Assembly (NCBI GenBank): GCA_977020255.1
Contig: CDROCS010000358.1
Span: 186,001-250,000, forward strand
Source: Obrimoposthia wandeli
Taxonomy: Eukaryota
Length of the DNA stretch: 64,000 nt
Direction: 5' to 3'
The notes under the pieces were generated by a model. That model saw only the letters and a list, made by a program, of their open reading frames with translations, made no database searches and was not told the origin of the DNA. This document shows positions 9,284 to 34,338 of the stretch, piece after piece; within the stretch, counting starts at the first letter, position 1, and each line of letters begins with the position of its first letter. Position numbers and translations under genes: made by a program.

Positions 9284-10253
9284 CTATACCTACCAAACTC
9301 ACTCTGTAGGCCTCCATATGAGAAACCTAAAGATATTTTTAAGAAAATCCCACCAAAAATAAATTCTATGGAACGTAGCCTAGATCTCATAAATACTTGA
9401 TAAATTCCATAGAATATATTTTACTTGGCTCTATACACTGCAAGAAATATAGAACGTCTTAATTCATTTCGTACTAAAGAATGTAAACTCTATTATAAGA
9501 TAATGTATAGTGAAATATAGTTTACTCATATATTTTTCATCGAAATCGTTCTGCAATATAACAATAAATTCTTCAAATGGCAACAAATACGTGAAGATAT
9601 AAAAATAACTTAAAATATGAGGACGTCATATATCGAATTTGAACAACGTTTAATTGGCATAGTGCTAAATTCAATTTTTAAAAATTTTATATTCAAAAAA
9701 AACTTTTTTCAAAAATTTCTCTGTGCAAAATATCATCTGCAATATAACTTATTTTAATGCAATAAATTACAAATGAATGTATTCTTGATATAAAATTTAT
9801 AATATATAAACATTAAATTCAATAAATTATTTATATGCAATTGTTTTAATCTTCCTCTTATAAATAATATATTTAAAATCCTTTAAATATATTTAATACA
9901 ATTGTCCGATTTAGTCTAATAAATAGTCACGATTGATTTTAAATTATAAAATCAAATTTGTGCTACAAAATATATGATTTTAATTGTAAACTATCGACGA
10001 ATACTCTAACCGTGTTATATTCAAAAAAATTAAATTAATTTTTTTGATATTGACTAAATGTTTATTTTAAAAGTTTTTTTTAATATTTCTAAACCACATT
10101 AATAAAATAATTAGTATCGTCTTTATAGTCTTTAAAAGAGTTTTCAATTTTTAAAATAAATAAATTTGTTAATGGAATTTTGTGCCATACAAATATTAAG
10201 TTTTGTACCACTGCTTAATATATTCATATTTTGTGCTTATATATTGTAATCCA
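9253..10253. repeat. Dispersed non-autonomous element with (CTAA)7 at one end, copy 1
   Basis: Highly similar to 31630-32453; both copies end at gtaatccac. Confidence 0.8.
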
Positions 10254-10525
10254 CAATTATAGCGCCCTTAATGGGTCTTACTTTTACCGTGCGATAAAGT
10301 TGTGTGTATGTCGATTTTATTTTCATGGAAATCTACACTTTTGCACTCGGTGCATTTCTATTTTGCATTACTGTGTTCGTTGGGCAATTTTATTATTCGG
10401 TCTAAATGGGATTCTAAAATCAACGGTTGAATTAAAACGGTGTTGTGCCATCCATCACAAATTGCCCTAGACTTGCTAATCGATGTTTTGTATTGCGTGA
10501 TTTTGCATTGATGTTATTTTTACCT

Positions 10526-10927
10526 TGTGTGACGATTGCTATTTATAGCAATCGTCGATTTGCCAGACCTGTGTGTTTGATTGGTCCCGGTCTGGCAACT
10601 TTATCTTGTTATCTCTCCCTGACATTTGGGCGATTGCTATTTATAGCAATCGTCGTTCGGATTTATTCTAGTGGAATTTTTAGACTTACAAAAATTTATC
10701 TGTATTTCAATTTCCTAAAAGAAGAATATATTATTTGATTTATTTGAATTTCCCAATTTTCTAAAAGAAGAACATATTATTTGATTTATTTGAATTTCCC
10801 GATTTTTCTAAAAGAAGAATATATTATTTGATTTATTTGAATTTCTCAATTTTCTAAAAGAAAAAACTGATTTTATTTAAAACTGTTCAAACTTCAATTA
10901 CCGCTCAGAAACTATTCAAATATAACA
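10526..10927 (+). repeat. 5' LTR (402 bp) containing a 43-bp tandem repeat
   Basis: Starts tgtgt, ends gaaactattcaaatataaca; shares blocks with 24101-24777. Confidence 0.8.
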
Positions 10928-10928
10928 T

Positions 10929-10943
10929 TGGTGAGCTCGACTT
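10929..10943 (+). promoter_or_regulatory. Primer-binding-site-like sequence
   Basis: TGGTGAGCTCGACTT begins 1 nt after the LTR end; cognate tRNA not identified. Confidence 0.65.
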
Positions 10944-12574
10944 AGAGCACGATACGGAAATTAGACTACAGGTCATTTATTTATTTATTTTTGTATAATA
11001 ATATTTAGTTTATTGTATTAGTTTATTATTTAGTTTATAGTGTATTATTAAAAAGAAAATCGAATTGATTTTGTTTTTCTTACATTTGAGTTTTAGTTGT
11101 CCCTTTTTGACATTAAAGAATTATATTTATTTTACATTTATTTAACTTTGATAGGATTCATTTAGTTTCTCAAGTTTTAGCTGTAATTTATTTTTACATT
11201 TAATGTTCATATTTTTGTCTGTTGTAATAATTTAATTGAATTGTTAGTTATCCATTTGATTATTTTTATATACATAGCATTCTAATTTGCTTTAGTTTAT
11301 ATTTTATTACATAATTTGAATATACATAGATTCAAAATATTTCCTTTTGGGTTATTTAAACTCATTTAAAAAATTATCTTAGTTTTACAACTTTACAAAT
11401 ATTTATAATTTCAAAAACTTATAACATTTTATTTTTTGTGTAAATTTGTGATTCGTATAAAGTATCGGGAACTTTTATATTACCTTGATTGATATATTAG
11501 ATATAAAATACTAAAATAATATAGTTGAGGTGTTTGCAGCTGTGCGCACAAGCCTCGTAAGATTAAAAACATAATTTTGTTTCCGGAAACATAGTCGGGT
11601 CCTGTTATCTAATTTTCTTTTATAATTTGAGTCGTGTTGATTATTTTAATCATAAGTTATAGAAAATTTTGAAAAAATTTTAACATTTTCCTTTGAACCG
11701 GTTTACCAGTAGGAAATTCGTTTTTTGAGAACTATAAATTGGAGTGGATTTATCTATTAGAGGCGTAAAAGTAAAATAAATAACTAAAAAGATAATAAAA
11801 GTTAAAATAATCATATAAATATATTTTTGTATAAAAATAAAATTGATCAAAAAATTTAAAATTTTGTCGCAAATTGTCTTGTTTCCCAAGTTACGTCGAG
11901 TGCTATCATATAAAGACTATATACTGGTTGGCGGTGGTAGTGCTCAAAGTGATAAGGGACAGAGATTGTTGAGATAAATTTTTGAGTCTTGTTATTGTTC
12001 TAAAAAATTAAAAAACAAAATAAAATAAAACTTCGGAAAGATAAATTTTCTCCAGAGATTTTCAGAGAGCGTGTTTTTAATATTGATAAGAGAGTTTGAT
12101 TTTGAGATTGACTAAATAACTTTTACGAATTCCTCCGAAATATTTTTAGTTTCAGTACGCAGTACGCATTTTTCATTTGTGCAATATTTGATTTTGAAAC
12201 TTTAAATAAATTATTAATAACACAAACCCAAAAATCTATCACAAAAACAGACACACAAAATAAGTAAACAAAAACGTAGCGCTAGCCTTCACTGGAGAAG
12301 AATTCAAACAAGATTAGTTAGAACAGACTCCAGTGAAAAAACAATTCAAAGACCCAAATCACAAATCAGTTTTACAACAAATAACGATTTACTTACACAG
12401 ACTTCCCCACTCTCAGAACATCTGGACCTAGCTTTAACCTCAGATACAGAGAGTTTACCTTCACCACAAACATCTGACTCGGATAGTTCGTCAGAAATAA
12501 CGGAAGCAGTAGCCGTCCCAGAACCACCTATTGTACAGATAAACAACGAACAAATAATCGATCAACCTCAAATA

Positions 12575-14060
12575 ATGGCTGAACATAAATTAAATGTTCC
12601 TTTAGACGCTTTCAATGGCGATAAATCCTCATTACCCGAATTTTTAAATAGATTTGATTCATTTGCTCAAGCATTTGAATGGACTAATGAAGAGAAACTT
12701 AGGGTTTTTCCAGCGTATTTAAAAGGCACTGCCTTAACAATTTATAGAGGATTAAACAATGAACAAAAAGACACATGGGACCATTTAGTTCAGAATTTTC
12801 AAAATATGATTTTAGGAACCCAATCAGAGCAAAATTACTTAAATCAGTTTAGACAACGTGAGCAACATTTAGGAGAACCCACAAATATTTTTGCAATTGA
12901 ATTAAGACGTTTAGCCCTAAAATCATTCCCTGGAATTGAGGAAGTTTTAAGAGAGCGCTTACTGTTACATCAGTTTCTACATGGATTAAATAATAAAATC
13001 AAAAATCATCCAGCTCTACTAGAAGTAGAAAATTTTCAGCAAGCTGTAAATAAGGCTCAACTTGTAGAAACAAGATTAAACATGTTACAACAATCTGAGG
13101 TTTCAGCATTAACCTTTGAAAAAATACAAAGACCAACAACACCACCAAATTTCAATCAAACTCAAAACTATAACCCAAATACACAATCTAATTACCAAAG
13201 CCAACAACAATATACACCACCGACAAATAACTTTTATAGAAATCAAACAAACAGAAACTATACAGACTCACAAATTACACAAAGACCTTTCCAGAAATGT
13301 ACAAATTGTGGACTACAAAATCACACAATAGAGAATTGTTATAAAATAACCAACAACAAATTTTGTAGATTTTGTAAAAAAGACAATCATACTATTGAAA
13401 CTTGCCGAAAACTGTTATACAGACAAAGTAATAATATACAACCACAAAATAATAACTTTAACAATCCTAATAATAATTTCAAAAATACAAATAATAATTT
13501 TAGAAGCCCATATAATAATTTCAATAATCAAAATAATCAAGCTAAATATTTTAATACTAATACAAAATTTTGTAAAATTTGTAATATGAAAAATCACAAT
13601 ACTGATGAATGTAGCAAACTAAATACAATGATGAACCAATTTGGTAACACAACAATAAAACAACAACAACAACCACAACCACAGATTCAAAAAACAGTAC
13701 AGTTTAACAATCAAAATCAACAATATGCTTACAGAAACCCAATACATACTATTGAAAACACTGATATAAATCAGGAAACAGAAGAAGTTGCATTGATGAG
13801 ATTAAGACAACAAGAAATAGATAATCGCTATAAAGAAACACATCAGCAATACCAAAACAATGAGCAAAACACAAATAGTACCAACTCTCAATCTGAATTC
13901 GGAGAAATATTTAGAAACGGTTGTCTAACATTAGAAAAAAGAACACAAATAAGTACAAAAATAAATCAAACCACTCAAACACAAGATAAAAAATCGAAAA
14001 ATAAAAATAAACGAAAATCACCAAAAAATAGTAAAAATTCAAATCTTAAAAATACATATA
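12575..14060 (+). CDS. gag: Gag: capsid domain plus three CCHC zinc knuckles and Asn/Gln-rich linkers
   Basis: AFNGD..LPEFLNRF..AQAFEW..EKL, FRQREQ; knuckles CTNCGLQNHTIENC, CRFCKKDNHTIETC, CKICNMKNHNTDEC. Confidence 0.9.
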
Positions 14061-14068
14061 ATTTTAAC

Positions 14069-15950
14069 AAAATCATCCAGAATTTATGGAAAATAATTCA
14101 AATAATATTTATGATATGTATAATTACAAATATAATAAAACCTATAAATGCTCTTGAAGCATATGATTGTTCAAAATATAGTATTCAAAATAAATATTCA
14201 CTAATGGATTTACAACAATGCGCCGACGCAGATCCAAATGAAGTAAAAGTTAAAACCACCAAGTTATTTCATGTATACCAGGAAACAGATTACATAAATA
14301 CAGAAGTTTTCGAATGTAGAGTACATGTGGAAACATTCATAACATATTGCGGACAACACAGCCATAATTCAATTGTTAAGCCAGCATTAGGAAAAACACC
14401 AATAATTGTGGACGCGTTAAATTGTAAAGATGCTTTTGCAACAGGCGAACTGAGAATAGATAGAGAAATAAAAGTAAAAGCAATAAAAAACAAAATAATA
14501 CAACAAATGATTACGGTGGTAGGAACTATCAAATCTGACGGAGAATGCACAACAGGATCATACGTCGTAATGGGAGTTAAACAAAGTGGTTTAGTAGTTA
14601 TAAAAAACTTTGAGGTAGAACTAAGAACATTTAAAGCAACATTTGATCCATCTACAAATACCATGGTGACTATGCCTTTTTGTGCAGCAAATATCGGATA
14701 TTGTAACACAGGATCTTCAATTTTATACTATAAGGTAAAAACAGACCAATGTAAATTAATACTACTAAAATCAGAAAATTTCCAAATAATTCAAGGTCAA
14801 AGATTCAAAGATGATCCAGAGCTAGATCAACGAATTCCAAAAAATATACTTAAAAATATAGAACTAGAAAAATACAAAAAACATCAACTCCAACTATTTT
14901 AATGTCAACTGAACAAGGTTCAGGTATGCGATTTATTAAAAGAAAGAGGAATCCCGATGTGGACACTCTATTTATACAACTAATTATAAAGGAATATATC
15001 TAAGTAAAGAAAAAATTTATAATGCAAAAACTACACCAACAAAATTTGATATAAAAAATTACGATTATTTCAATAATAAATTAGATAATTTTTATCACAA
15101 AGGATTAATGACAATAGAAGCTATTTATAGAGAAACAATAATGAATGACTGTAAATTAAATCAAGAAATTTTGAAAACAAAACTAGCAATTATTGCTACA
15201 AATCCAGAATTAATAACACCATTATTACCGTTACCAGATGGTACTTTCGGAAGAGTAATGGGAGAGGTACTATATACGTATCAATGCCAAAAAGTAATAG
15301 TTAATATAAGAAATCACAATAAATGTACCAAAGAATTGCCAATTTCATACAAAAATCATTCATTATTTGTAGAACCAATCACCAGAATAATACTTTTTAA
15401 CACATTCAGCATAAAAGAAATAAACTGTTCAAACATAATGGCACCTCATTATAAAATTTCAAAAGATATCTGGATAACATTACCAAGAAGAGACATAGTT
15501 GCTCAACCACTAAAACTACAATTAACTAATCTAAAAAATGACATAGAAATAAATCCAGACAATGAACTAAATACAAAAGGCATTTACATACAAGAAGATA
15601 TAGATAAATTAAGAAAAGAAATTTTATTTCCTCAAATAAGATCACGAATTTTAACACAAATCATAGAAAGATCAGTACCAGACGGAATTAGCCGTCCTGA
15701 TTATGATTTATTACTTTCTCCAAACCATTACATAAAAGCTACAAAAAATACAATGTCAAAAATATGGGGAAAATTTTTAATATTTGGACAAGCATTTTCT
15801 GGACTTGTAGGAATATATGCACTACAAATATGCTTTAAAATACTATTGAGTCAAATTTTATCCACATACTATATTTATAAAGTTGGAGGATTAACATGGA
15901 AACTAATATTAGGATGTTTTCCATTTTTGGAAAAATTTCTTATATTTAAT
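14069..15950 (+). pseudogene. env: Chuvirus-like (class III) envelope glycoprotein in frame with Gag; two frameshifts near 14880 and 14940
   Basis: Internal signal peptide, then LEAYDC...QC, ECRVH...YCGQHSHNS, CGHSIYTTN, NDCKLNQEIL, GRVMGEVLYTYQC, and a C-terminal hydrophobic region WGKFLIFGQAFSGLVGIY; pattern recalled for chuviral G. Confidence 0.8.
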
Positions 15951-16139
15951 CATCTTCAAAATACTGTAAACGCATTATCAAACGAAATGCGAGAAACAAA
16001 TTTACAAAAAATAGTAGACAATAAAAATAAAGAGAATACAGAATCTGCACAATACCCCGATTTAGAAAGATATAAAGAAGAAATAATAGTTCAAAAATCA
16101 ACTGCACCAACAATATATACTATAAATCAAATGGATAAT

Positions 16140-16793
16140 GATAGACGACCTTATGTAAAAGTTGAAATAAATGAGTATAAATTAAAAGCTTTAATTGACA
16201 CAGGATCAAGCGTAACAGTTTTGGACGAGTCTTTCTTAAAACCACACCAAATATTACTACTTCTCACAGATAATAGTCAAATAACAGCAGCAAACGGTCA
16301 ACCCGTAAATATTATTGGTAAATTAGATTGTATTTTTAAAATAGGAGATAAATTTATAAAAATACCTACTAGAATAATGAAAAATTGTCCATGTCAGATG
16401 ATAATAGGAATAGATACATTGAGGAAATTAGGAAACAATTTTCACTTCGACTTTGAGAAAAATCAAATTAAAGACATTTACAGACCAAACGCTAAAAGCG
16501 AATACGAATTGGAAATAAAAGGAGATATCATCCTTCAACCTAGAACAGAAACAATATTACAATTAGAAACTAACATAGTTACAGAAAAAGACATCTTATT
16601 CGAACCTTATAAATATCAACAGGAAACATTAAATTACGTTCTACCAAATATAATTTGTAAAATAAGAAATAACACAATACCTATCAGAATACTAAATGGA
16701 GACATAAACGAGATTCATCTAAAAGTAGGAACACGCCTTGGAAAAATAAGTGTTATAGAGAATATAGAATTAATTAATAATGAAAAAATATAA
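16140..16793 (+). CDS. Aspartic protease and post-protease domain, in the same ORF (15108-16793) as the glycoprotein C-terminus
   Basis: RPYVKVEI...ALIDTGSSVTVL (DTG at 16197), IIGID; one in-frame TAA at 16791-16793 separates it from RT. Confidence 0.9.
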   Translation, partial: DRRPYVKVEINEYKLKALIDTGSSVTVLDESFLKPHQILLLLTDNSQITAANGQPVNIIGKLDCIFKIGDKFIKIPTRIMKNCPCQMIIGIDTLRKLGNNFHFDFEKNQIKDIYRPNAKSEYELEIKGDIILQPRTETILQLETNIVTEKDILFEPYKYQQETLNYVLPNIICKIRNNTIPIRILNGDINEIHLKVGTRLGKISVIENIELINNEKI

Positions 16794-18200
16794 GACAATT
16801 CCACCGTAAAATTTGAAAATATTAGATTAAATGATTATGAGAAATCAAAACTAAAATCATTGATGGAGAAATATGACGTGATTTTTTGCAAAAATGAATA
16901 TGACCTAGGACGAACAGATTTAATTAAACATAACCTTCCGTTAACTATTAATACAGCAATCAAACAACGACCTTACCGTATCCCATACGCTTACAGAGAA
17001 GAAGCTCAAAGACAGGTAAAAGGAATGTTAGAGAATAATATCATAAGAAGAAGTTTTTCAGCATGGACATCTCCGGTTGTTTTGATAAAAAGAAAGATGG
17101 TTCACTAAGATTTTGCGTAGATTACAGAAAATTAAACGAGATCACACATAAAGACACATATCCGCTTCCAAGAATCGATGAAATCTTAGATAAACTAAAA
17201 AATGCAAAAATATTTACAACCTTAGATTTACAAAGTGGATATTGGCAGATAGAAATAGATGAATCAGATAAAGAAAAACAGCATTCTCAACAGGAGAAGG
17301 ATTATACGAATTTAACGTTTTACCTTTTGGATTAACAGGTGCTCCAGCAACATTTCAGAGGTGCATGAGCCACATTTTAATGGACGCCGATCATGTCATG
17401 GTTTATATCGACAATATTCTAATTTTTTCAAAAAATTTTGAAGAACATTTAAAAGATTTAGAAAATGTATTTCTTAGATTAAAAATAGCAGGTTTAAAAT
17501 TAAAACCAAAAAAGTGTGAATGGATGAAAGACAAAGTGAATTATCTAGGTCACGCAGTATCAGCAAAAGGAATTCAACCAGATGAAAGTAATATAGAAAA
17601 AATAAAGAATTTTCCAATTCCAAAAACAGTAAAAAATATACAAGAATTTTTAGGACTTGCAGGATATTATCGTCGATTTATCAGAAACTTTGCACAAATA
17701 GCAACACCATTAAACAAACTTATTAAAAAGGATGAAAATTTTGAATGGGAAACGGAACAACAAGAGTCATACGAGTACTTAAAACAAAAATTGATAGAAA
17801 AACCTATATTGATATATCCTAATTTCAACAACTCGTTTCTAGTAATGACTGACGCAAGTGGATACGCGTTAGGAGCAGTACTAGGACAACAGGATAATAA
17901 TGAAAAAGATCATGTGATAGCGTACGCAAGCAGAGGTCTTAAAAACACGAAATAAATATTCAAACAAAAGAAAGGAATGCCCCCGCTATTTGTTTCGCAA
18001 TGGAACATTTTAAACATTACTTATTAGGTCGAAAAGTTCACGTTTATACTGATCAAAGACCATTACAGTGGCTACTAAATCATAAAGATACAACATCTAG
18101 ATTAATGAGATGGGCGTTAATTCTCCAAAAATATGATATTGAAATTAAATATAGAAAAGGTAAATCAAACGCCAATGCAGATTGCCTATCTAGAATAAGA
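16794..18200 (+). pseudogene. pol: Reverse transcriptase and RNase H, frameshifted
   Basis: [47 protein letters not shown] in place of YxDD (17404-17415), TDASGYALGAVL, ANADCLSR. Confidence 0.92.
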
Positions 18201-18479
18201 GAAGAAGTAAATGTAATAAATTCCAATGACACCGAATTAAATATTTTTACAATAATCAAGGCTCGATATGATGATAAAGTAATCACCGATCTTCAAAGCA
18301 AAGATACGGAATTACAACAAATAATTAAGTATATCACCATCAATCAAGTTCCAACAGATGAAAAATTAAGAAAACATTTAAAAAAAACTCATGAATCTCG
18401 CTATAAATTCAGTAACAATATTTTACATTATTTAAACGATAAAAATCTGTACTCACTAGTTATACCTAAAGAAATACAA

Positions 18480-19560
18480 TGACAATTACTCCTTCAATAT
18501 CATAACGGAGCTTTAGGAGGACATCTTTCAACAAAAAAGACACATTCAAGATTAAATTTAAAATATTATTGGATTGATATGAAAGAAGATGTAAAAAATT
18601 GGTGTAATACTTGTGAAATATGTCTTAAAAGAAAAAACACCTTACGTACCACAAAGATACCTTTAAAACCAATACCGTATCCATCGGCCCCCATGGAAAC
18701 TGTTGCCATGGATGTAATGGGGCCATTACCTGAAACACCCCGAGGAAATCGATATATAATAGTATTTTCAGATTATTTTACAAGATGGCCAGAGGCTTTT
18801 CCAACACATGATCATAAGGCTGAAACCATCGCGAAGGTTTTAGTCGAAAAAATTATTTTTACTTTCGGTGCACCCCGAAAGTTATTAACCGACAAAGGTC
18901 CTGAATTTATAAATAATGTATTAGCATCAATAGCTGAAATCTTTCACATAAAAAAGATCAATACAACACCATATCACCCTCAAACCGACGGATTAGTAGA
19001 AAGATTTAATAGAATTCTCGAAGATATGATGGCATCATATACAAACAACAACCAAACAGATTGGGATTTGCACATACCCCCATGCCTTTTTGCATATAGA
19101 ACATCAGTACATGCATCTACAGGAGAAACACCTTTTTACCTTATGTTCCTCAGAGATCCGCAAATGCCTATTGACCTAACATTACTACAACCTACTACAC
19201 AATACCTAGAAATACCTGAATACAAAATAGAAATTAGAGAAAGAATAAAACTAGCATTTGAAAAGGCTAAATTATTTGTAAAAAACATACAAGAAAATTA
19301 CAAAGAATATTATGATAGAAGAACTAAGCCATCAAATATAAAAAGCGGAAGTAAAGTGATGATTCACAATCCACAAATTAATGTAGGATTGTCACACAAA
19401 TTATCAAAACCATACAAAGGACCATATACAGTTATTAGTACCAATGGAACTAACATAACAGCTAAACTCGACAATGAACTAAAATCAAAAGAAATAAGAA
19501 CACACATAAATAGATGTCGACAAGTACCAGAAGAGAATACAACAGTAAAAAGCCATAAAT
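18480..19560 (+). pseudogene. Integrase (HHCC zinc finger, DDE core, GPY motif)
   Basis: H..ALGGH...WCNTCEIC; AMDVMGP, LTDKGPEF, GLVERFN; KPYKGPY; a stop lies immediately upstream. Confidence 0.92.
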
Positions 19561-19619
19561 ATAATTTGAGATCAAACACAAAAAATACAGTTTTACAAAT
19601 GTTACCAATACAAGATATA

Positions 19620-20930
19620 CAGAGAAAAAATATTAAAAACAAAAAATCTAAATGGAATAAGGCAATAGTTATATCAATAAAGGAATTTTCAAAAATTTTA
19701 ATAATATTCGCAATTTATCTCTTCATAAGTAAAAACGTGCAAGGAGCAAATGCTACCAAACTAAATGATAAAAAACTAACTATAAAAAATGTTATAAATA
19801 AACATGACTCGACAACACATCTTATAAAAAATTTTGGTTTAATTACGATAATACCAGAAATCACATCTATAAAGTTAAAAATCTCGCTCTTTATAAACAA
19901 AACTGAAATATACAAATTACACAAAAGACAGAAAACAAAACATAACAATAATAGGAATAAAATCACGAAAATATACAATACCATTCTTAAGAGATGAAAC
20001 ACAATATGAAATTAAAATAAAATCAAATACACAAAACATTACACTTTATCAAAGAACTATAGAAACTCACATATACCTAGCATCAATATTAGAAACAACA
20101 GCGAAATATATATCAAAACATAAAATAATGATAAAATGGGAATTTCAACTAAAAATAGACGACTTAGATAAAGCCCTCATTAGAATTAGATATAGAGGAC
20201 ATAATATTAATTTTTGGAAAAACTCAGAAAAACAATTAGAAAAAACACAAACTAAAACAAATTTAACCATAGAAAATATAAGATATCCAGAGAGAATAAT
20301 AATACAATATAGAGAATGTGTAATCACAAATAAACCAATGATGTATAGAAGTTGGGGACACATTTTGAATACTTACAAAAACATAACTACTTTAGAAACA
20401 ATAGGAAAAAAGATATCAAAAATGTTTCAACCAACTCTTTTTGCGGGAGTTGGCTAATAATAAAAATAAAAGAACCTATATTAAAATCAACAAAAGTAAT
20501 GAAAATATATTTAACACAATATACAACAAAAATATTTAAGAAAATATCATCAATCATTTCTAAAGAAAACATACAAAACCAGTCAACCTTTTTAAAAAAT
20601 ACAATAAATTCATCAAAATCGATGAACTTAAAACATATAATATTTTTTAGTCAACGAAATCATTCACAAAACATATATCATACAGAATTTAAGATAATAA
20701 TAGCAATAATAATTGAAATATTTAACATTTTAATAAAAGTAATAATAAAAATAAAAACTTTTAAAAGAATTAAAACTAAAAAATCATTTCACTTAAACAA
20801 ACTGTATGGACCACCAGGTCCACTCATAACATCCCTAATACCAAGTGGTACAAATTCATCCAATACATCAATAGATACGGTAATCAAGAACTATAAACAC
20901 AAAGAGAAAAACAACACTGATTTGTAAAAA
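19620..20930 (+). pseudogene. Post-integrase region beginning with a second signal-peptide-like segment; fragmented
   Basis: Basic stretch then KILIIFAIYLFISKNVQG in frame with integrase; homologous sequence in the minus-strand copy at 5100-5950. Confidence 0.45.
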
Positions 20931-20997
20931 TCAAAAGATTTAATTTTTTTTTCTCTTTCTCAAAATAAGACTTAAATTTTTTTTAACATTTTAGAAA

Positions 20998-21306
20998 ATG
21001 AGAAATTCAAAATTAGTACAAAATAATAGAAGAAGATATAAAAGACAGAAAAAATGGGAAAATAAATTGTTAATAGAGAATATAAATCTGAGATCGCATT
21101 TAAAAGACAAGGAAATGGAATGTGAACGAATGAATAATGCTTTTGACGTTGCAATTGAAAGATTAGAACATAGCCAAACAAATCAGGAATTATTAGTACG
21201 ACGACTCAGAGAAGCATTAAACTCTCTCGTATCATTGAGATCAGTAATTAATCGTTTGATGGGATTTCAACCGGGAGAAAGCGATGATTCCGGGTGTGAA
21301 AATTAG
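20998..21306 (+). CDS. 102-aa basic plus coiled-coil (bZIP-like) accessory protein
   Basis: NNRRRYKRQKKW followed by heptad-spaced Leu; ATG preceded by a tttag acceptor-like site. Confidence 0.55.
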   Translation: MRNSKLVQNNRRRYKRQKKWENKLLIENINLRSHLKDKEMECERMNNAFDVAIERLEHSQTNQELLVRRLREALNSLVSLRSVINRLMGFQPGESDDSGCEN

Positions 21307-21739
21307 TAAAATCCCCAGTGAGTAAAATAAAATATAAAATAAAAGAAAATTGAGAATGAGTTTGGGCTTTTGGCATGTTTTTGGAGAGGAAATGCGTTTA
21401 TGAATGGGTATTAATATTCATTAACTTTAGTTGAAATAGTAATAATAAAATTAAGAATAGGTAAAAAATGAATATACCAGTATAGATATGTATATATTGA
21501 TATTGATAACACCAGTAATAAGAATATATATATTAAAAAATGAAAAAATCATATTTTATTTATATACCTTGTTTGTTTAAACTTGTTATATAAAGACAAA
21601 AACGATTTACAGATTTTTGATTAACAAAAAGAGACAAAATAACTAACAGGAACATTTCATTTGATAGACAGTTGACAATTTTTATATTTGCATGTAAAAG
21701 ATCAACAATTTTTTTTTACTATATCTGTATACCCTACAG

Positions 21740-22876
21740 ATGGAACCCACAAGCACGAATCCTCATTTGAACTGGCAGGTGGTGCCGCGGGGAAAGAGAG
21801 AGAAGTCGGTCCAGTTAGCAGAACAACGTCCAGAAATGGCGAAAATGGCTAAGTTCCTTTATGGAAAAATAAGACAGTTTGGAACAAGGTATTTCCATAA
21901 CCATTACGGAATAAAGCTTTTTGACAATCAGACCCAGCTTCCAAATAGCATTAAGTTAAGAGACACCCCAAGACAAAGTATAATTCTCAACATAAATAGT
22001 AAAAAGCCAACGGAAAAAAGACTGTTTGAGTTGATGAATTTCTTACCAATATGCACGGACATTGAGATTCACGTAGCAAAAGGCCGTGGATTTTTAAAAC
22101 ACAGGAAAAGCAAACATTTTTCTATCCTTCTCCTGCAAAACCACTCTTACAGATTAATGAGACATCAAATAACTCCCGATTTGATGATTCGTTTTTCGGG
22201 TGGAAATAACATATTTTTCATGGAGCAAAATGTGCGACCTAATCCCGTTCAAGTCTGCCATTTGAATATCATACCCTACAATCCTCAAATATTTTTTGTC
22301 GATTGTGAAATGGTAGTAAAAATGAACAAACAACCCACCCTAGCTAGCATTACAATAATGAATAGAAGCGGACAGATCGTGTTGGATACGAAATGCAATA
22401 GCAGAGACAGAATCAGGAATTATGTGACAAGAATAACGGGCCTTAATGAACGGAAGTTAAGAAACCAACCTGATTCTGTCGAAGTGTTAGAACGTGTCCA
22501 ATCCTTGCTAAGAGACAATATTTTCGTAGGGACGGGAATATCCAACGATCTCAAAGTTTTAGGATTACAAAAAAACGATTTTTCGCACACGGTTGATCTA
22601 GGGGCAACACAAACTATTCAAATGGAAATGAACCGTAGAGAACAAGCCGGACTTGCTCGAATGGTTTCGTGGTATTTCAATAAAGAAATACAAAAGAATA
22701 CCCACTCTAGCCTCATAGACACGCAATGGACCCGAAAAATTTTCCTCCATAAAGAACAAGAACTGCTAAAAGAATGTGGTTTGACCGTCTCTTTTCCCCG
22801 CGTAACCAACGCTAATTTTCCTGTCTTAACCGAGGTTATAGACCTCACCTCCTCTGATTCTGAGGACAACATTTAA
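21740..22876 (+). CDS. DEDDh 3'-5' exonuclease (REX4/ISG20-like), 378 aa
   Basis: ExoI FVDCEMV, NYVTRITGL, ExoII FVGTGISNDLKVL, ExoIII HSSLIDT; uninterrupted ORF. Confidence 0.88.
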   Translation: MEPTSTNPHLNWQVVPRGKREKSVQLAEQRPEMAKMAKFLYGKIRQFGTRYFHNHYGIKLFDNQTQLPNSIKLRDTPRQSIILNINSKKPTEKRLFELMNFLPICTDIEIHVAKGRGFLKHRKSKHFSILLLQNHSYRLMRHQITPDLMIRFSGGNNIFFMEQNVRPNPVQVCHLNIIPYNPQIFFVDCEMVVKMNKQPTLASITIMNRSGQIVLDTKCNSRDRIRNYVTRITGLNERKLRNQPDSVEVLERVQSLLRDNIFVGTGISNDLKVLGLQKNDFSHTVDLGATQTIQMEMNRREQAGLARMVSWYFNKEIQKNTHSSLIDTQWTRKIFLHKEQELLKECGLTVSFPRVTNANFPVLTEVIDLTSSDSEDNI

Positions 22877-23254
22877 AGTGGTAGGAAAATTTATGATTTT
22901 AGAAAATGTTTCGAGAAAAATCAGAGTGAACAGAAAATAAAAAAAAGTAAACACTACTAGAGTAATCGTGTTTATGGCTGATTTTTATCGAAAACATAAA
23001 AATAATTTTATAGCATGAATGAATCCATATTTTAAATGATGACAATTTTTTTTAACTATGTTTAACAATGATTATTTTAACAATTAAACAAACATCTTTG
23101 TTAAATATAAAACGTCAGAGGTCTGACTTTGTATACTCCCATAGGATTGTTGGGTCTTTAATTAAAATTAATTAATTAAATTACAGTCAATTTAAATTGA
23201 CATTTTTTAAAATTATCTAAAGTGCCCACAATTAGGGAGGTTTATCAAATTTCA

Positions 23255-23306
23255 GCCTCCGACGGGTTGTTAGCCCGTTTCGCCCTGCCGGGCTCATCAG
23301 GAAGGC
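23255..23306 (-). ncRNA. Type I hammerhead ribozyme
   Basis: Minus strand: GCCUUC-CUGAUGA-GCCC(GGCA)GGGC-GAAA-CGGG(CUAACAA)CCCG-UC-GGAGGC. All core nucleotides and three helices present; GUC cleavage triplet. Confidence 0.9.
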
Positions 23307-23329
23307 GGCGAAAAAAGCGGTTGATAAAA

Positions 23330-24015
23330 GGGATTCTTATCATAAAAATATTACCGCCCAGTAGCAGCGACCTATTCCCTTCATCATCATCCGGAGAGGC
23401 AACAAACTTCAATCATCCCATCTCGGAAGCAGTTGCCTCCCTGACAACAAATTTCCCGCCTGCTCAACCGCCCCTGTGTATCCTTCACTACCCTATTTCT
23501 ACTACGTGGCGGAGATGTCCGGCATCTCACTGTTCAACAGCTACCTCATGGCCTACCCTATCTGCATGGCGGTCTTGGAGCTTAGCTTATTCAGTTGCCT
23601 TAACATGTTCGCCATCAACCTGGGCATCGTCATCTCTCTTTTCCTCCTCTTCCCGCACAACTCTTGGAGATGGCAGGCGAGACCCCGACAGCATGCCTAA
23701 CTTTGACAATAATGTATGCAACAGCAGTCTCTCCGGTCAACGGCTCAGACAGCGACACTGACCGGCTGCCATAATCCTGGTGGTCCAGCGGTGACTGCAT
23801 TGAACAACTGTACAATCCGGCCATGAATCTACACACAAAAACTTTGGTGCTGTCTTTAGTGTCGGTGTGTGGTGTGTATATCCTCTCTCCTCTCTCACAA
23901 TCTCTATATTATTTTTCGTACAATCACTGTTTTTCCCTCTCAAAATTATCCAGTGTGAATGTGTGTTGACTGAAATCTCTCCTGTACTGTCATTTCCCCC
24001 TTTTCTCCACAACAT
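23330..24015 (-). pseudogene. Decayed GC-rich antisense ORF with a Cys/His cluster
   Basis: One frame continues through isolated TGA/TAG stops: LCVDSWPDCTVVQCSHRW...GQCRCL..., EEEEREMTMPRLMANMLRQL. Confidence 0.4.
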
Positions 24016-24088
24016 AGTCCATCATACCATGCAATAAGACAGTGTTGAGATGACCAGCGATGTAGAGGATTGTAATATGTGGACTGTT

Positions 24089-24097
24089 AAGAGAAGG
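24089..24097 (+). promoter_or_regulatory. Polypurine tract
   Basis: aagagaagg 3 nt upstream of the 3' LTR start. Confidence 0.6.
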
Positions 24098-24100
24098 CTA

Positions 24101-24777
24101 TGTGTAAAGATCACGGATTATTAATGTTGCAGCTTCTTCCTTACACATGTGAATGTGATTGTGTGTTGATACTTCATACCTGGACCTGTGTGTCTGATTG
24201 GTCCCGGTCTGCCAACTTTATCAACTTTCTCTCCCTCAATGGACATCGTCGATTTAGATGCCCATTTGACATTTGGACGATTGCTATTTATAGCAATCGT
24301 CGATTGGATTTAGATCAGTCAATTCTCCTTATTACAAATTTGTTGTCTTTTCAGTTTTCATTATCACACAAATTATTTTATGAATATATTTCTAAAAGAA
24401 GAACAAATTATTTTATGATCTAAGAATACATTATTGGAAACTATTCAAATATAACATTCAGTTTTCATTATCACACAAATTAATTTATGAATATATTTCT
24501 AAAATAAGAACAAATTATTTTATGATCTAAGAATACATTATTGGAAACTATTCAAATATAACATTCAGTTTTCATTATCACACAAATTAATTTATGAATA
24601 TATTTCTAAAAGAAGAACAAATTATTTTATGATCTAAGAATACATTATTGGAAACTATTCAAATATAACATTCAGTTTTCATTATCACACAAATTATTTT
24701 ATGAATATATTTCTAAAAGAAGAACAAATTATTTTATGATCTAAGAATACATTATTGGAAACTAATCAAATATAACA
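24101..24777 (+). repeat. 3' LTR including a 4 x 107 bp tandem array (24350-24777)
   Basis: Starts tgtgt, shares gacctgtgtg..tgattggtcccggtct and the 26-bp palindrome with the 5' LTR, ends aaatataaca. Confidence 0.8.
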
Positions 24778-26129
24778 TATCTTCAGAAAAATGTCTAATA
24801 AAATTCACCAAAATTAAAAAGTCATTCTCAAAATATTTTTAATTTCAGACAGCCTTCTCTGATCGTCCTATTCCTAGTGCAATTTTCAATCAGCATTGAG
24901 AGAAATTTTTGGTTTCTGTAGCTGTCTCGTATGATTATTTACGATTGCTTGGATATTATTTTTTCTATGGTATTCTCTGCGTTAATTAATTGTTGTATTT
25001 ATCTTTATCCCAATTATTCTTTGGTAATGGTTTATCTTCTGTAACCATACCATGATAACTATTGATGACGATGTCTGGTCTTATGCTTTCTTTACTTTTT
25101 CTGATTTTCCTCTTAGGTTTTTCTCTAATGCATTTAAATTATATACTTATTGCAATGTTTCAAGGATACAAACAATTTACTCGAATTCAATTATTATTTT
25201 AATTTTCTCAAATTTTATTGTTTAAGGTTATTTATAGTAAGTACTTACTATATATGTTTTAACTTTTCTACATTATGAATTAATTAATTTCTGTATGAAC
25301 CGAAAAAATAAAAAATTATATAAAAATCGTAAATTGCTTTAATTAAATTTATAAATATAACACAACTTAAAATATACCAAAATTTAATGGATTTTGCTTT
25401 GGAATGCTATAATATATTGTCTTTTTCTATTTTCAATCAACGTATTTGTGCTAAAAAGAAGTTTTCTACTTTGACATACAGTAAAAGTAAAAGGTGAATT
25501 CGCCTGAAAGAATTATATAGACCAATGTGAATTTCGCTGAACACCTTGATTCTTAGCTATGATACTCTCATAAAGATTTGATAACAAAAAAGGAAATTGT
25601 TTGAAAAACCTTTAATTAGAATTTTTACATTCTGATTAAGTGATTAGTAGATATTCCGATTAGTGAATCCAATTGTTAACAAGAAAAGAAGACGTCGTCA
25701 ACGATATCTGGCCTCGCAACACAGTACAAAGTAAGCAGTATATAAACCATCGATTTAATTGATACCTTGTAGAATTTGATTCAGATTTAGAGACACAGAG
25801 ATAGACACCGCCTAGAATCGACAAGAAAATATACTAAACAGAAATTTCGAAAAGAGTTGAACTTATAAACATGTTGCATATAAACCTTGCCAAAAATATT
25901 GAGTACTGTACGCCTTCAAGAATAGGGGTATCAACAACTGTGAGTAATAATTTGATATCAATTGGTAAATTTAATATTTAATATACATTGACAATTGTAA
26001 ATTGAGATTCGATCACAGCTGCGTTACAAATAATACAGAAATTTTAATTTTTGGAAATAATGGAGATTGGATTATAGCTACTTCACAAAGGACACGGAAA
26101 TCAACAATTGTAAGTAATATTTTACAACA

Positions 26130-26270: not shown

Positions 26271-27320
26271 ATTTCGCATTGATTAAAAATTGTAGAGTGT
26301 AACCATATCACCTAAATAGTTCTTTAGTTAATAAAATAGTTTATTTAAGAGTACGCTACAATTGTGATTAATAATAAATATCGTGAATTTAAACTTTAGT
26401 ACTGACCGTCCCTAACTATTCAGAGGGTTACAGTCGGAACTACTTGAGTACGGTTTAGTTTTTGCAAATTTCTGGTCATGGTTTGGCGCGTCTATTATTG
26501 AAACTAAAATCAAATTCGGTCTTATACAATCAGCAACACGACAATAGTTTTAAGGAATTTCGAGTTATCATTCATCAACTGGCTTCAATAATTTATTTGA
26601 ATATTTTTCTATTACTTTATATACGTGTATTTTATAAGTCATATTTGACGTATATTAGAGTAAAGCCGTGTAAAAAATTTCTAAATAAACTTTTAAGTTG
26701 ATTGAATCTTTTGATTAAAGTTTGGTAAATTCTTCAGCCTACTTGTCATTAAATCAAAAATTAAATTTAAAAAATTGTAAGGTTTTATTTCTCAAAGATT
26801 TTCATGCAAATGATCTTTAATTGTTCCATATTACTTTTATAAAAAATACAATTTACTACGAATTTATTAATAAATAAGAAGTATTATAAAAATATTTAAA
26901 TGAACTCTTATTAAATATATTTAAAATTTTAAAAATGTCTAATAAAATAATTTAACTATTTAAAATTATTATAAAATATAGAAATAAAACAACCAATAAT
27001 AATATTTTAAAGTTAAAATAATTAGTACTACATTTTATTTATCTAAGTTATAATATACTACTTTTATTTTTAGTGAGTGTAATTGTTATTGATATTATTT
27101 TTTGATTAATTATAATAATTGTTATATTTCAATTTTAAAGTTTACATTTCAAAGTTAGACTTTTTCTGAAAATCTAAAGTTAGTTATTTTGTCAATAGTT
27201 ATTTCGACATAGAATCGGAATATTAGGTTATTTTTAATTATCCAATTTATTCCCATTTGCTTTATTTATTTGTTATTCCTTCTAAATGTTTTGTTAATTT
27301 CGATATTCCAATTTCAGAAT

Positions 27321-28579
27321 ATGGACGATCTCTGGACTCACCTCTCCGATAATGGACTACACACAAACGTCGTAAATATCCCTAACAGTTGTTTGTGCAT
27401 GTTATGCAACTCGATCATGCGACATCCGGTCTCTACCAAATGTGGATGCGTCTTTTGTGAGCACTGCATACGTGACTATCTTCTCGATGACCGCAAGCCG
27501 TGTCCGGGATGCCTCAAAGAAAACGATATCGCACAAATTGAATACACCAACGACATCACAGAGTGCAAGACGTCCAGTAGGGAAATCTTGAGACTTATCA
27601 CGGTGTGTCCTCTCGATGGATGTGAGGAGTCATTTGAGTTGCGAGCGCTGCTAGAACATCTCATCTCGTGCTCCATGATGAAAAATGGCTGCATGTTCAA
27701 GTCAATCGGATGTAGCACCGGTAATATGAACAGTACACAGTTGGAGGTGCATTTGAGTGAAGAATCAATAGAGCACTATAAACTAATTGTTGAAGCGTTA
27801 TGTGAGTTGAAGAACGGTTATGAAGCAATGCAGGTGGAGCGGAAATCTGTGAATGCTGTGAGGATTGAGATGTCTCAGATGAAGGAGGACTTTGCCGTGC
27901 TGAGGGCTGAGATGATGACAGCGATTGGGATTATGGCGGGAGATTTGAATGCGATCAAGGCCGAGAATGTGGAACAAAGTCAGAATCTTATGGAGGCAAT
28001 GAGGAAGGATATAAATGAAATTAAAATGGAATCAGATTTAAAAGAAAGAGAATTTAAGAATTTGAGAACAGAATTAGATAGCCTTAAAGAACAAAATATC
28101 GAATTGAATCAGGTTCTTCTGAACCACGAATCTGTTTTAGAGAATGTGAAGGAAGAAAAGGAAAATTCTTCTGAGAGGACAAATGTATTGGAAACAAAGC
28201 TCCATGAAGTCGTCTTGATAAGTGAAGCGATGAAATGCGAATTAGAGATTCTAAGAAAGGAAATGGTCGATTTGAAAACTTCGTTGACAAAAAGTGAGGT
28301 AAAGGCCGTGGCAGATGAAGCCTTTCCAGAGTGGAACCAAAGAATGGTAAGCTGAGTTTTCTTATATCTAGAATCTTCGCGAGGCATTCAAATATTTAGA
28401 TATTCAATTAGTTTAAGCTAAATTACAAATGTGCTAAATCTTTTGTAGAATTCTTGGTATTCGAACTATTTAAAGCTAACTGTATTATACATTTTGTATT
28501 CCAGGAGAAGCAATTACAGCAAGGAGGTGACCAAGCGAATGATAAAACGATCCAAATTAGGCGCAGAGCTGAATCGATG
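27321..28579 (+). CDS. RING / TRAF-type zinc finger / coiled-coil protein, paralog 1 (exons 27321-28346, 28505-28579; 3' end unresolved)
   Basis: C-x2-C-x11-C-x-C-x2-C-x2-C-x11-C-x2-C RING, CP..GC...L.EHL..C...C.F...GC, long heptad region; GT-AG phase-0 junction. Confidence 0.8.
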
Positions 28580-30400: not shown

Positions 30401-31629
30401 CTTGTTTTCGTTTTAATTTATCGCTTATTTAAAAACGCACTAAAATATCACTTTCATCGGATGTATTATAAGAGCAACTCTAAATGAAAAAGATCGAGAC
30501 AAATTTGACAAATATGACGCAGAAAATTTTAAACAGGCTTTGCGTTACCGAAAATAAAGTTTGAAAGATACTCTGATCAAATTTCTTCTAAAGTAGTTCA
30601 AATAATCAAATCAAACAAATAAACGTATGAATTATTACCATTCTATAATATCAGTATTTGTGACTTCTACGACAGTCAATCGAGAACAATTTTGAAAGTT
30701 TTCCCCAGAATTTGATTATCATTGAGTACTGGACCACTAGCTAGATGCTAACTTTTCTTATTTTTGCGAAAGTCAAACAAATGAAGAACATCTTGTCCTG
30801 TGGGTTTTCGATCTTTTAATTCAGTAGTCTGTAAATTGCTCCCACATTGTGTCATACTTTTTGCCAGCTTTCATCGCATTAGTACCTTTAATAATGTGTT
30901 AAAATACTTAATATTCTAATAACATAATATCATTTTTCATGAAACATCAAAGGTTTTGAAGCATATGCAATCACTTTTTTGTTTATAATTTCATCCAGTT
31001 GGCTCAATACTGCTCAATCGCACTAAAACTTACGACTATTTCAAATATTCAGTTTTCAGTTTAATCTGGAAAAATCTAATATAGGAGCTGTTCTTAATTT
31101 TTCTTGAGAAGTTCAAATCTTGTTTTACAATCCAGTGAACATTGTAATTTTACCCGCCTATTGTAGTGGAGCTACAATTTTGGCATAATCTTTAATCAAT
31201 CGATGATAATAGTTTGTCATTCATAGGATTGATCTTAGTTTCCCGCTTCAATCTGGTTCTTTGAAATTTATAATTTCGCTGACTTTCGGTTAATTGGTAT
31301 TCCGCTTTCTGTTATGGTATGACCTAGGAATTTTATCAGCTTCTGGCCGATGAAGCATTTATAAGGGTTTATTTTGAGGCCTGCATCTGCAATTCTTTTG
31401 AATACTTCCATTAAAAGTTTATGATGTTCTTTTTGTTGTTATTATAAACAAGGATAACATCCAGATACGCGATTGTTCCATTGAACAGCAAAACAACACC
31501 CCACTAGTTTCGGATATTCAAGCCAATATTGTACACAATTATGAACAAAGCATAAATCACCAAACACAAATGAAGAAGTCGATTCAGAAATTCTTCAGAT
31601 CAATGAAATCAGATAAGAAATTAAGACCA

Positions 31630-32453
31630 CTAACTACTATACCTACCAAACTCACTCTGTAGGCCTCCATATGAGAAACCTAAAGATATTTTTTAGAAAA
31701 TCCCACCAAATAAATTCTATGGAACGTGGCCTAGATCTCATAAATACTTGATAAATTCCATAAAATATATTTTACTTGGCTCTATACACTGCAAGAAATA
31801 TAGAACGGCTTAATTCATTTCGTGCTAAAGGATGTAAACTCTATTATAAGATAATGTATAGTGAAATAGTTCACTCATATATTATTCATCGAAATCGTTC
31901 TGCAATATAACAATAAATTCTTCAAATGACAACAAATACGTGAACATATTTTTTAAAAAATACAAATGAATATATTCTTGAGATAAAATTTATAATATAT
32001 AAATATTAAATCCCACAAATTATTTATATGCAATTGTTTTAATCTTCCTCCTATAAACTTTATATTTAAATACTTTTAAATATATTTCATACAATTGTCC
32101 GATTTAGTCTAATAAATAGCAATACGTCACAATTGATTTTAAATTATAAAATCCAATTTGTGCTACAAAAAATATGATTTTAATTGTAAACTATCGACGA
32201 TTTCTTTAACCGCGTTATATTCAAAATAATTAAATAACTTATTTATATATTTACTAAATGTTTCTTTAAAAAGGTTTTTTTAATATTTCCAAACAACAAT
32301 ATTAAAATAATTAGATCGTCGTTTTAGTCTCTAAAAGCGTTTTTAATTTTTTTAAAAATAAACTTTTTTAATGAAATTTTGTGCCTTACAAATATTAAGT
32401 TTTGTATCATTGCTTAATATATTCATATTTTGTGCTCATATATTGTAATCCAC
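31630..32453. repeat. Dispersed non-autonomous element, copy 2
   Basis: Matches 9277-10253 with an internal deletion of about 150 bp. Confidence 0.8.
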
Positions 32454-33154
32454 TTTGGTCAAAATAATCTATTGAACTTTCATGTCATAATTTAATTTCA
32501 AATCATAAAAAAAAATCCTATTATATAATTTTTGAGTATTAAACCGGTCTATAATATTTAATAATCATTTAGTAAATAAGAAAACAAATCATACAGTTCG
32601 ACTTTTAAATATTTCCTAAATTTAACAAATTTAATATCACACTTCATGAAAAACTTGCAAACAATATTCAATTAGATTTCATTATCAATGATAACTATGT
32701 CTGATTCTTTGATACAATTAAATTTCCAAAGTAAATAAATTCACTTGAGTGCATTTATAACATTTATATAACATCAGTTTTTCTTATTATTTGCAATGCA
32801 AACTTATTTCTTTTACTGAATCGATAATCTGATTTGGCTAAACATTATTAAAAAGTTTATTTTTATTTCTTATCATTCTTAACTTTCAGTAACTCGAAAT
32901 ATTTAATAAACCAATAAAATATCCCACTGCCCACACTACAAAAATCTTTTTTTTCAAAATAAATTTATATTTTGAATAAATTAATTCTGCTTTTAATGTA
33001 TCTTCAATTAGGGTATATGTTAATTACTGACTAATTATTTGAACTGGTTTTAAACTAATATTTAAATGTACAATTTAACCTATATTTGTTAATCTAATTT
33101 TTCGATTTATACAGAAAATTTTACTATATTTTTACAATATTTATTTCTTTTAAT

Positions 33155-34338
33155 ATGAATATAATATGGAAATATTTAAAAGACCACAATTTAGAAATTG
33201 ATGTGTCGCATGTATCTCCATATGTAAAGTGCTCAATGTGTTCCTTAATTCTGAGACAGCCCATGGTGGCTGTTTGTGGTTGCGTGTTCTGTGACGAGTG
33301 CATCCACAAATATCTCGGGGAAGACTTGAAGCCGTGCCCAGGTTGTATCATGGATAACATCGCAACTGAAATAAGATACGACCGCGATATAGTGCAATGT
33401 AGGAAGTCCACGAGGGAAATAAACAAGCTTGTTGTCACTTGCCCGCACGATGGATGCGAAGAGAAATGCGAGTTGCTGCAGCTTATGGAGCACATTGTAT
33501 CTTGTCCTGTGACAAAGTTGGGCTGCATTTTCAGCAGCGTTGGATGTATGAGTGCGCAGTTTAATTCGCTGGAGCTGAATAAGCATCTGGATGAAGGAAG
33601 AATGGCGCATTATCGGATTATTGTCGAGACTCTGTGTCTGCTCAAGAACGGTTTCGAGTCCCTGCAGGCGGAGCGAGGAGACGAGTCTGTCATCAGAAAT
33701 GAGACGGATAAGCTGAAAGAAGACCACACAGAGTTGAGAGTTGCGTGTGTAGCGAGAGATAACGAATCCAAGGCGGCGATTGATGCGATTGTGGCGGATG
33801 TGGCGGCTCTGAGAGCGCAGAATGTGGAGACGAAGAAGAAATTAGAGCTGAGAGAGGCAGAAATGAAGAAGGATAAAGAAGAATTCTTGGGAGAAATTGA
33901 ACAGTTGCAGAAGAAAGTTGAGAGATTGAGAGAGGATAATGGGAAAATGAGTCAAACAATCAAAGAGAACAAAGATAATATCGATGGTGTGCGGAGGGAA
34001 ATGAAGGAAGATATAAAGAGGGTTGCAGAATCAAATTCTGAGGATAATACGAAATGGCAGACGAAGATTGACGAGAAGAAATCGGACTCAGAGAAAATGA
34101 GAAAGGAAATTGGCGAATTAAGAGCGACTCTGGTGACAAAGGCCGATATGAAAACGGCGCTCGATGAATATTCGCTAGAAGTGGCTCAATTGAAGAAGGA
34201 AATAGACCGAGTTAAAGTAATTATTCCCCTCGCTCTATTTATGACGCATTGCAGGAGGAAGTGGCGCAGCAGAAGAAAGATTCAGAGAAGGAGAGAGCGA
34301 TGACGACGAGTGGGGTGGAGAAGACAGCTGGAGCAGAG
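33155..34338 (+). CDS. RING / TRAF-type zinc finger / coiled-coil protein, paralog 2 (exons 33155-34216, 34255-34338; 3' end unresolved)
   Basis: CSMC...CGCVFCDEC...CPGC with the same spacing as paralog 1; 38-nt GT-AG intron at 34217-34254. Confidence 0.8.

Follow-up and report, generated by a model that had tools for sequence, protein, structure and literature searches.

A type I hammerhead ribozyme is conserved in each long terminal repeat (LTR) of an abundant, recently mobile Ty3/Gypsy element of Obrimoposthia wandeli that is related to Burro and, to judge from the copies compared, it always lies on the strand opposite the genomic RNA. Exon matches in the host genome indicate that the U3 region behind this ribozyme repeatedly acquires pieces of spliced host mRNA, which are copied to both LTRs. 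The copy analyzed here occupies part of a 64,000-nucleotide (nt) stretch of contig CDROCS010000358.1 (assembly GCA_977020255.1, positions 186,001 to 250,000 of the forward strand), hereafter the window, and the region from 20998 to 24778 is its 3' module. An earlier sequence-only reading had viewed this region as an accessory cassette like that of a complex retrovirus, a view that holds loosely, in that selected accessory open reading frames (ORFs) stand in fixed order, and fails in that there is neither an HBZ-like antisense protein nor a basic leucine zipper (bZIP). A DNA search with 20900-24200 returned 4,704 candidates, of which 40 were scored, indicating a very abundant element. A search with the exonuclease ORF returned 5,866; the 109 scored copies are 93 to 100% identical and 95 of them lack an internal stop, the 109 being the best-scoring ones and hence biased toward intact copies.

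Paired LTRs of other copies define the 3' LTR of the window copy as a 1.63-kb repeat with TG...CA ends at 23148..24778 on the plus strand. In 9 of the 15 pairs examined, the 5' and 3' LTRs are 98.3 to 100% identical over 1.08 to 1.42 kb, with the start at the equivalent of 23148, and in five they are absent, rearranged, or of different type; an exact 4-bp target site duplication (TSD) is present in 9 of 11 cases. A short purine-rich tract at 23138..23147 (plus strand), the polypurine tract (PPT) position, is constant just before 3' LTRs and gives way to unrelated flank before 5' LTRs. The pairs rule out a PPT at 24090-24104, and the distance from integrase to PPT, previously put at about 4 kb and thought to include an antisense unit, is ~3.1 kb. 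Since the LTR starts at 23148, the ribozyme, formerly placed ahead of the PPT, and the supposed antisense ORF both fall within U3 of the 3' LTR and hence at both ends of an insertion. The right end of the LTR consists of four 107-bp tandem repeats (24350..24778, plus strand), and in other copies a tandem unit particular to each LTR variant directly precedes the terminal CA. A 5' LTR remnant at 10490..10939 (plus strand) has another U3 variant without the ribozyme part; it ends at 10927, and the primer-binding site begins at 10929. The two LTRs of the window copy differ in their U3 variants, as do those of one fetched pair (L017/L077), and such mismatches may reflect recombination between copies or an assembly mosaic.

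The ribozyme lies at 23255..23306 on the minus strand, confirming the strand proposed earlier. It has the core CUGAUGA/GAAA/UC (CUGANGA, GAAA, and an NUH site) and three helices of 6, 4, and 5 bp with helix I open, as expected of type I, and its cut is predicted between 23261 and 23260, 113 nt from the outer end of the LTR. The 52-nt piece folds into the motif as its minimum-energy structure (-20.7 kcal/mol). A 24-letter pattern of the hammerhead matched the genome 6,028 times and its reversed control not once; in the first 100 matches listed, the free stem II pair was C-G in 48, U-A in 51, U-G in 1, and mismatched in none. Among 75 distinct instances (34 sequences), each stem pair is kept in 72 to 75, and changes on both sides of a pair occur at I.3, I.5, I.6, II.4, and III.2, so that compensatory changes are found in all three stems. 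When LTRs were anchored on their start alone, core and stems were intact in 122 of 135 distinct LTRs, and no sense-strand hammerhead occurred in the first kilobase of any of the 135.

The ribozyme also separates the constant part of the LTR from the variable part, and similarity between copies often stops there. The proportion of LTRs that align is 132 to 135 of 135 before the ribozyme, falling to 56 to 60 and then to 15 to 22 beyond it, in a sample enriched for window-like LTRs. This hypervariable patchwork extends from 23307 to 24270 (plus strand), and 51 such U3 regions group into 14 clusters, with blocks shared and swapped among them. In the window, 23497..23648 is a sense-oriented, 152-nt piece of a coding exon from a host gene for an MFS-type transporter and is 99.3% identical to G000:C613 (locus L206); the donor locus has no ribozyme or LTR match, and a 292-nt version, 100% identical, is present in another LTR. 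The donor exon is homologous to L208 (50%) and L209 (38%; Pfam MFS_1, E = 5e-18). Two of 34 U3 frames match Pfam above cut-off, one to a C-type lectin (E = 1e-12) and one to CBS (E = 2e-7). The CBS piece corresponds to three exons of G000:C5974 that lie 2.4 and 2.1 kb apart, have GT-AG borders, are 97 to 99% identical to their copies, and are joined in the LTR; the lectin piece corresponds to three exons of G000:C1836 (94 to 99% identical). A fourth piece matches G000:C1014 (97% over 271 nt), a locus that lacks both ribozyme and LTR start. The three donors whose direction is known were all captured in sense orientation, as expected from template switching onto mRNA (PMC5131818).

Some further observations concern these captured pieces. 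The middle exon captured from the CBS gene (L169 5971-6059, from G000:C5974:34970-35058) adds an in-frame stop, and for this reason the captured RNA looks like a nonproductive splice form. The CBS donor was found by the DNA search; a Pfam search of the genome for CBS domains did not single it out and gave mostly long intronless frames. Such frames, which make up most CBS-domain matches across the G000 contigs, are typical of bacteria, which suggests that bacterial contigs are present in the assembly. We examined two plus-strand U3 frames, of 186 and 111 aa, as candidates for a third accessory gene but rejected them, since both fuse captured pieces, with ends that vary from variant to variant. 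The LTRs form a dated archive of host mRNA capture.

We tentatively interpret the hammerhead as a firewall against antisense RNA that leaves only host-like U3 exposed, a reading to which we give a little less than an even chance. Host pieces would enter U3 when reverse transcriptase switches template onto co-packaged mRNA, a known mechanism, and each round of reverse transcription passes them to both LTRs. Leftward transcripts would arise at an invertible TATA in the LTR or from a host gene or PIWI-interacting RNA (piRNA) locus into which the element has inserted backwards. By cutting such a transcript 113 nt before the outer end of the LTR, the ribozyme would part the antisense copy of exonuclease, pol, and gag (44% U) from its cap, after which this copy would be lost. 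The portion upstream of the cut, U5-R-U3, would consist of tandem repeats plus lineage-specific sequence resembling that of the host, and would make a poor or costly silencing guide; A content is 44% in the internal region and 24% in variable U3. We count in favor of the firewall both the fixed position and orientation of the ribozyme (intact in antisense in 122 of 135 LTRs, in sense in none) and the retention of pairing rather than of letters in its stems. In flies, antisense insertion into host transcripts suffices to trigger piRNA immunity (PMC13226689), and in plants, gene capture has been discussed as camouflage (PMC13317346). Retroelement ribozymes treated in the available parts of reviews process the element's own sense RNA, and a ribozyme confined to the opposite strand across thousands of LTRs of a coding Gypsy element points to another job.

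Several points weigh against the firewall. With its flanks, the ribozyme forms a 91-nt stretch that adopts another fold (z = -0.49), and it scores 18.7 bits with Rfam HH9 against a cut-off of 52, with no Rfam match at gathering score. The pattern used for covariation already fixed three pairs of stem II together with a portion of stem I, and related copies do not count as independent events. The piRNA result from flies is transferred to this host by analogy. A cut alone would leave the polymerase running, and small-RNA pathways might still be fed by the downstream piece. No donor was identified for most of the U3 sequence; for 23716-24185 of the window, the search for one returned just diverged LTRs (~70%) and one 84-nt match at 88%. 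The three donors have no obvious function in common, and capture of host mRNA may be neutral.

The last of these points belongs to a rival account, in which the ribozyme does no more than terminate stray antisense transcripts or is a relic acquired from a Penelope-like element, and the patchwork is a neutral by-product of template switching at the single site that tolerates insertions. This account fits the absence of any shown donor bias, the generality of LTR-mediated capture of mRNA pieces in animals (PMC5131818), and the characteristic occurrence of type I hammerheads in Penelope-like elements and animal retrozymes (PMC7761336). A pure relic, however, would be expected to lose its compensatory pairs across element types whose exonucleases are just 37% identical, and the cited fly captures replace internal ORFs, whereas those described here are in both LTRs of coding elements; we regard the account as unlikely.

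An inverted repeat with a TATA-like center lies at 24278..24299, and its direction flips between copies. The sequence-only reading had reported a TATA box on the minus strand of the LTR; a hexamer reading TATAAA is indeed present at ~24283-24294, but its minus-strand direction is not a fixed property of the family. Among 119 LTR stretches, TATAWA reads on the minus strand only in 58, on the plus strand only in 18, on both in 11, and on neither in 4, and the remaining 28 have no palindrome. These counts bear on the possibility of a deliberate antisense noncoding RNA of ~1 kb that begins at the minus-strand TATA and has the ribozyme at its 3' end; complementary to the captured host mRNAs, this RNA, or small RNAs made from it, would damp host genes or soak up silencing factors. 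Such an RNA is compatible with the minus-strand reading in 69 of the 119 LTRs and with the lack of a minus-strand AATAAA in the interval from the TATA to the ribozyme, and, since captured pieces are sense-oriented, it would pair with host mRNA. Yet the ribozyme stays in the 50 of 119 LTRs in which the TATA is flipped or absent, the TATA occupies the position expected of an ordinary sense promoter, and the donors look random and turn over fast, making a deliberate antisense RNA unlikely.

Nor do the LTRs maintain an antisense protein. The ORF proposed for this role, 92 aa at 23737..24015 on the minus strand, is rejected as a gene and appears to be a chance frame. A homologue of the 92-aa frame is present in 15 of 122 distinct 900-nt antisense leaders, and one of a 64-aa frame in 13 of 122; an antisense ORF conserved from the 3' LTR, in the manner of human T-cell leukemia virus (HTLV), was not found among these 122. 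The start of the ORF differs between near-identical copies, the 92-aa protein matches nothing in Pfam, and 57 of 1000 dinucleotide shuffles contain an ATG frame of at least 92 aa. The median longest frame is 51 aa. In four sequencing runs (contigs of one sample, with DNA-like coverage), none of the 15 joints listed, of 87, had GT-AG ends, and no RNA run was listed as containing the stretch; both results are uninformative on expression. An HBZ-like antisense gene ended by the ribozyme and accompanied by a bZIP transactivator would explain the ATG frame of 92 aa that lies between ribozyme and minus-strand TATA. Given its presence in only 15 of the 122 leaders, the chance rate of 57 in 1000, and the lack of a bZIP signature, we consider such a gene barely credible.

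On the sense strand, two ORFs preceded by splice acceptor-like sequence had been predicted, and both were recovered, at 20998..21306 and 21740..22876. A pyrimidine tract and AG stand 0 to 3 nt ahead of each ATG, and this acceptor-like context is kept across element types. The first, ORF-A, encodes 102 aa with a basic N terminus, a coiled-coil-like middle, and a C-terminal DSG motif, and is probably made from spliced RNA. It is full length at 16 of 20 loci, and its ratio of nonsynonymous to synonymous substitution (dN/dS) is 0.06 to 0.30 against a second subfamily (12 comparisons, not independent), a pattern by which ORF-A is a real gene under purifying selection. Its description as bZIP-like does not survive: there is no Pfam bZIP match at E up to 1, and the spacing of basic region and leucines that defines a bZIP (N-x7-R/K-x9-L-x6-L) is absent. 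In other types, ORFs of 121 and 131 aa occupy the corresponding position and are likewise coiled-coil-like. The window ORF-A shows weak homology to its counterparts of 121, 131, and 74 aa, with values of 105, 16, and 227 in 2000 shuffles, respectively, whereas these three are clearly related among themselves (0, 0, and 2 of 2000). All four variants compared have a D[SD]G motif at their ends (DSGCEN, DSGNES, DDGYDS, and DSGYDL), which we take to resemble beta-TrCP degrons. An Atlas search with ORF-A was uninformative, returning only unnamed clusters and one HALZ set at 11%.

The second ORF encodes a 378-aa DEDDh 3'-5' exonuclease that is REX4/ISG20-like and whose N-terminal half is specific to the family, in agreement with the nuclease proposed earlier. 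It matches Pfam RNase_T (E = 4.6e-10) and has the DEDDh residues D188 and E190 (Exo I, D-x-E), D270 (Exo II), and H322 and D327 (Exo III, H-x4-D). Its matches in the PDB are ISG20, SDN1, and ISG20L2, and its named near matches are cestode REX4-type proteins, which, taken with the Burro-like G-protease frame, suggest a flatworm host. A length of 375 to 378 aa is kept at 12 of 20 loci, and the protein is 68% identical to that of the second subfamily, with a dN/dS of 0.09 to 0.11 (five full-length comparisons, not independent, with dS of ~2, near saturation); by these measures the ORF is a real gene under purifying selection. A cagATG start context is retained in three exonuclease types, and translation is most likely from spliced RNA. 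Unnamed Logan proteins share the N-terminal half and reach only ~35% identity with the best matches for P0002 in the genome, and relatives therefore exist beyond the types seen here. Word-index protein searches with the exonuclease and with a CBS piece gave no match, a metagenome scan gave 73 pattern matches of which none was confirmed, and a single-sequence fold of the exonuclease, with a predicted local distance difference test (pLDDT) score of 31, was not used.

The order of ORF-A, exonuclease, and ribozyme recurs across four distinct exonuclease types, and for that reason the cassette is, on comparative grounds, a heritable and selected part of the element rather than a chance mosaic of insertions. 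Components differing between copies had been named as the mark of such a mosaic; these three recur, and the part that varies, that of the supposed antisense ORF, does so because it is hypervariable U3 built partly of captured host mRNA. The genes themselves have different histories. Exonucleases are 37 to 68% identical in elements whose pol domains are 83 to 96% identical; at the low end, copies with pol this close to that of the window have an exonuclease just 37% identical and a different ORF, of 121 or 131 aa, in the place of ORF-A. Moreover, ORF-A and the exonuclease diverge at very different rates between the two subfamilies. The disparity with pol and the unequal rates together indicate that the 3' genes are swapped between copies as modules. 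Exonuclease-LTR segments of different subfamilies are also seen directly adjoining, in tandem or nested (L003 5201-6160 and L023/L024).

The firewall reading also takes in the accessory genes. The exonuclease, as an RNA 3' exonuclease, and ORF-A, as a small coiled-coil protein with a possible phosphodegron, most likely counter host RNA defense. In its most far-reaching form, the element would represent an envelope-bearing Gypsy lineage with an evolved counter-defense against the antisense/piRNA trap, in which the antisense LTR ribozyme severs read-through ahead of the coding region, the reshuffled U3 of host mRNA alone stays exposed and serves as self-like camouflage, and exchangeable exonuclease and degron genes act as suppressors. 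We regard this combination as possible but doubtful.

Individual components have precedents: the Gag-G-Pol order and a DEDD exonuclease ORF are each known in Gypsy elements (PMC6431247 and PMC5408684). Burro/GYPSM1, a giant Gypsy element of planarians, shares the mononegavirus-type glycoprotein between Gag and protease and the Gypsy domain order, whereas the window element is smaller (~14 to 15 kb) and lacks the extra domains, and the available parts of the Burro report describe no 3' accessory ORFs, LTR ribozyme, or captured U3 (PMC6431247). Burro exceeds 30 kb and has BIR, MATH, BCL2, and ankyrin domains; LTR-to-LTR spacing here is ~13 to 14 kb among listed pairs, and no such Pfam domains were found in the element frames scanned. 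P0154, with which the G-protease frame of the window shares 46% identity, is a polyprotein that matches Gag, G, protease, ankyrin, and, weakly, Bcl-2. P0154 and P0155 are unnamed polyproteins from ENA metagenome assemblies, with Gag, a Monjiviricetes G, and at least one protease in a Burro-like architecture.

Juno and Vesta, LTR elements of bdelloid rotifers, resemble the window element in having an extra 3' ORF with a DEDD exonuclease, coiled-coil ORF3s, and shared modules; their exonuclease is RNase D-like DEDDy (DEED) rather than REX4/ISG20-like DEDDh, and the word hammerhead is absent from the text of that report (PMC5408684). Type I hammerheads in terminal repeats are shared with Penelope-like elements, Terminons, and animal retrozymes, and Terminons also have DEDD and coiled-coil ORFs. 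Penelope-like elements, however, are not Gypsy elements, and their motifs are minimal with a weak helix III, which has 5 bp in the window (PMC7761336, PMC6765202, and 10.64898/2026.07.22.740005). Anakin, of mosquitoes, has the same glycoprotein class (chuvirus G) in an LTR element but is BEL/Pao, with no comparable 3' cassette described in the available text (PMC7642597). LTR-mediated retroposition and plant gene capture share partial, multigene mRNA capture by template switching and, with it, the camouflage hypothesis; those captures replace internal sequence in mostly defective elements, whereas the captures here lie in U3 of both LTRs behind a ribozyme (PMC5131818 and PMC13317346).

Plant LTR retrozymes, with one hammerhead per LTR, 4-bp TSDs, Gypsy-type ends, and circles (PMC4918200), raise the possibility that paired ribozymes excise a unit-length minus-strand RNA that is circularized for replication or spread. 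The plant elements are noncoding, and their type III ribozymes lie on the transcribed strand of a unit of <1 kb; the window element is coding, its ribozyme is type I and antisense, with no sense match in 135 LTRs, and the unit would be ~13 kb. The primer-binding site is, furthermore, on the plus strand, and a retrozyme-like cycle is very improbable. A search of the literature, in which subscription journals and Repbase reports were mostly outside coverage, did not turn up a coding Gypsy element whose LTRs carry an antisense hammerhead or whose U3 contains host exons. The LTR layout should surprise specialists and can be tested directly; the original observation is partly confirmed, and its interpretation partly supported.

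Complex retroviruses have small 3' accessory ORFs, and the deltaretrovirus gene HBZ is expressed by antisense transcription from the 3' LTR. The window element is similar in its small, probably spliced 3' ORFs and in possible antisense transcription from the 3' LTR; it differs in having no antisense protein or bZIP and in not belonging to Retroviridae. Its domains, identified with Pfam, run Gag, Monjiviricetes-type G, protease, reverse transcriptase, RNase H, and integrase from 12221 to 19997 on the plus strand, although stops and frameshifts split this copy into several frames. The order from protease to integrase, the Gypsy-type RNase H, and the H2C2 integrase place it in Ty3/Gypsy (Metaviridae), as do the TG...CA LTRs, primer-binding site, and exact 4-bp TSDs (9 of 11). 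TG...CA ends and 4-bp TSDs rule out Troyka (distinction from PMC12440569). The chuvirus-like G noted earlier, which lies upstream of the cassette, proved to be a Monjiviricetes fusion glycoprotein (PF24664, E = 4e-29 and 1e-58 in a Pfam scan of the element frames); its position between Gag and protease is that of Burro, and its frame is interrupted in this copy. Frames rich in K, I, and N extend ~1.4 kb past the integrase core (19500-20927); they have no Pfam match, and other types retain them (47% in L230). Close to an LTR copy in L207, 3375-4001 is a BIR-domain frame (Pfam E = 1e-14), BIR being also a cargo of Burro.

Elsewhere in the window, 5113-8932 (minus strand) holds older, rearranged fragments of the same family that are 69 to 75% identical to the gag, G, integrase, and post-integrase parts. 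Another dispersed repeat is present in two copies, at 9276-10254 and 31629-32453, which are 88 to 96% identical. Long open frames of 380, 401, and 880 aa lie on the plus strand at 27213-28355, 33098-34303, and 46207-48849, and a broken series of minus-strand open frames occupies 49804-54234.

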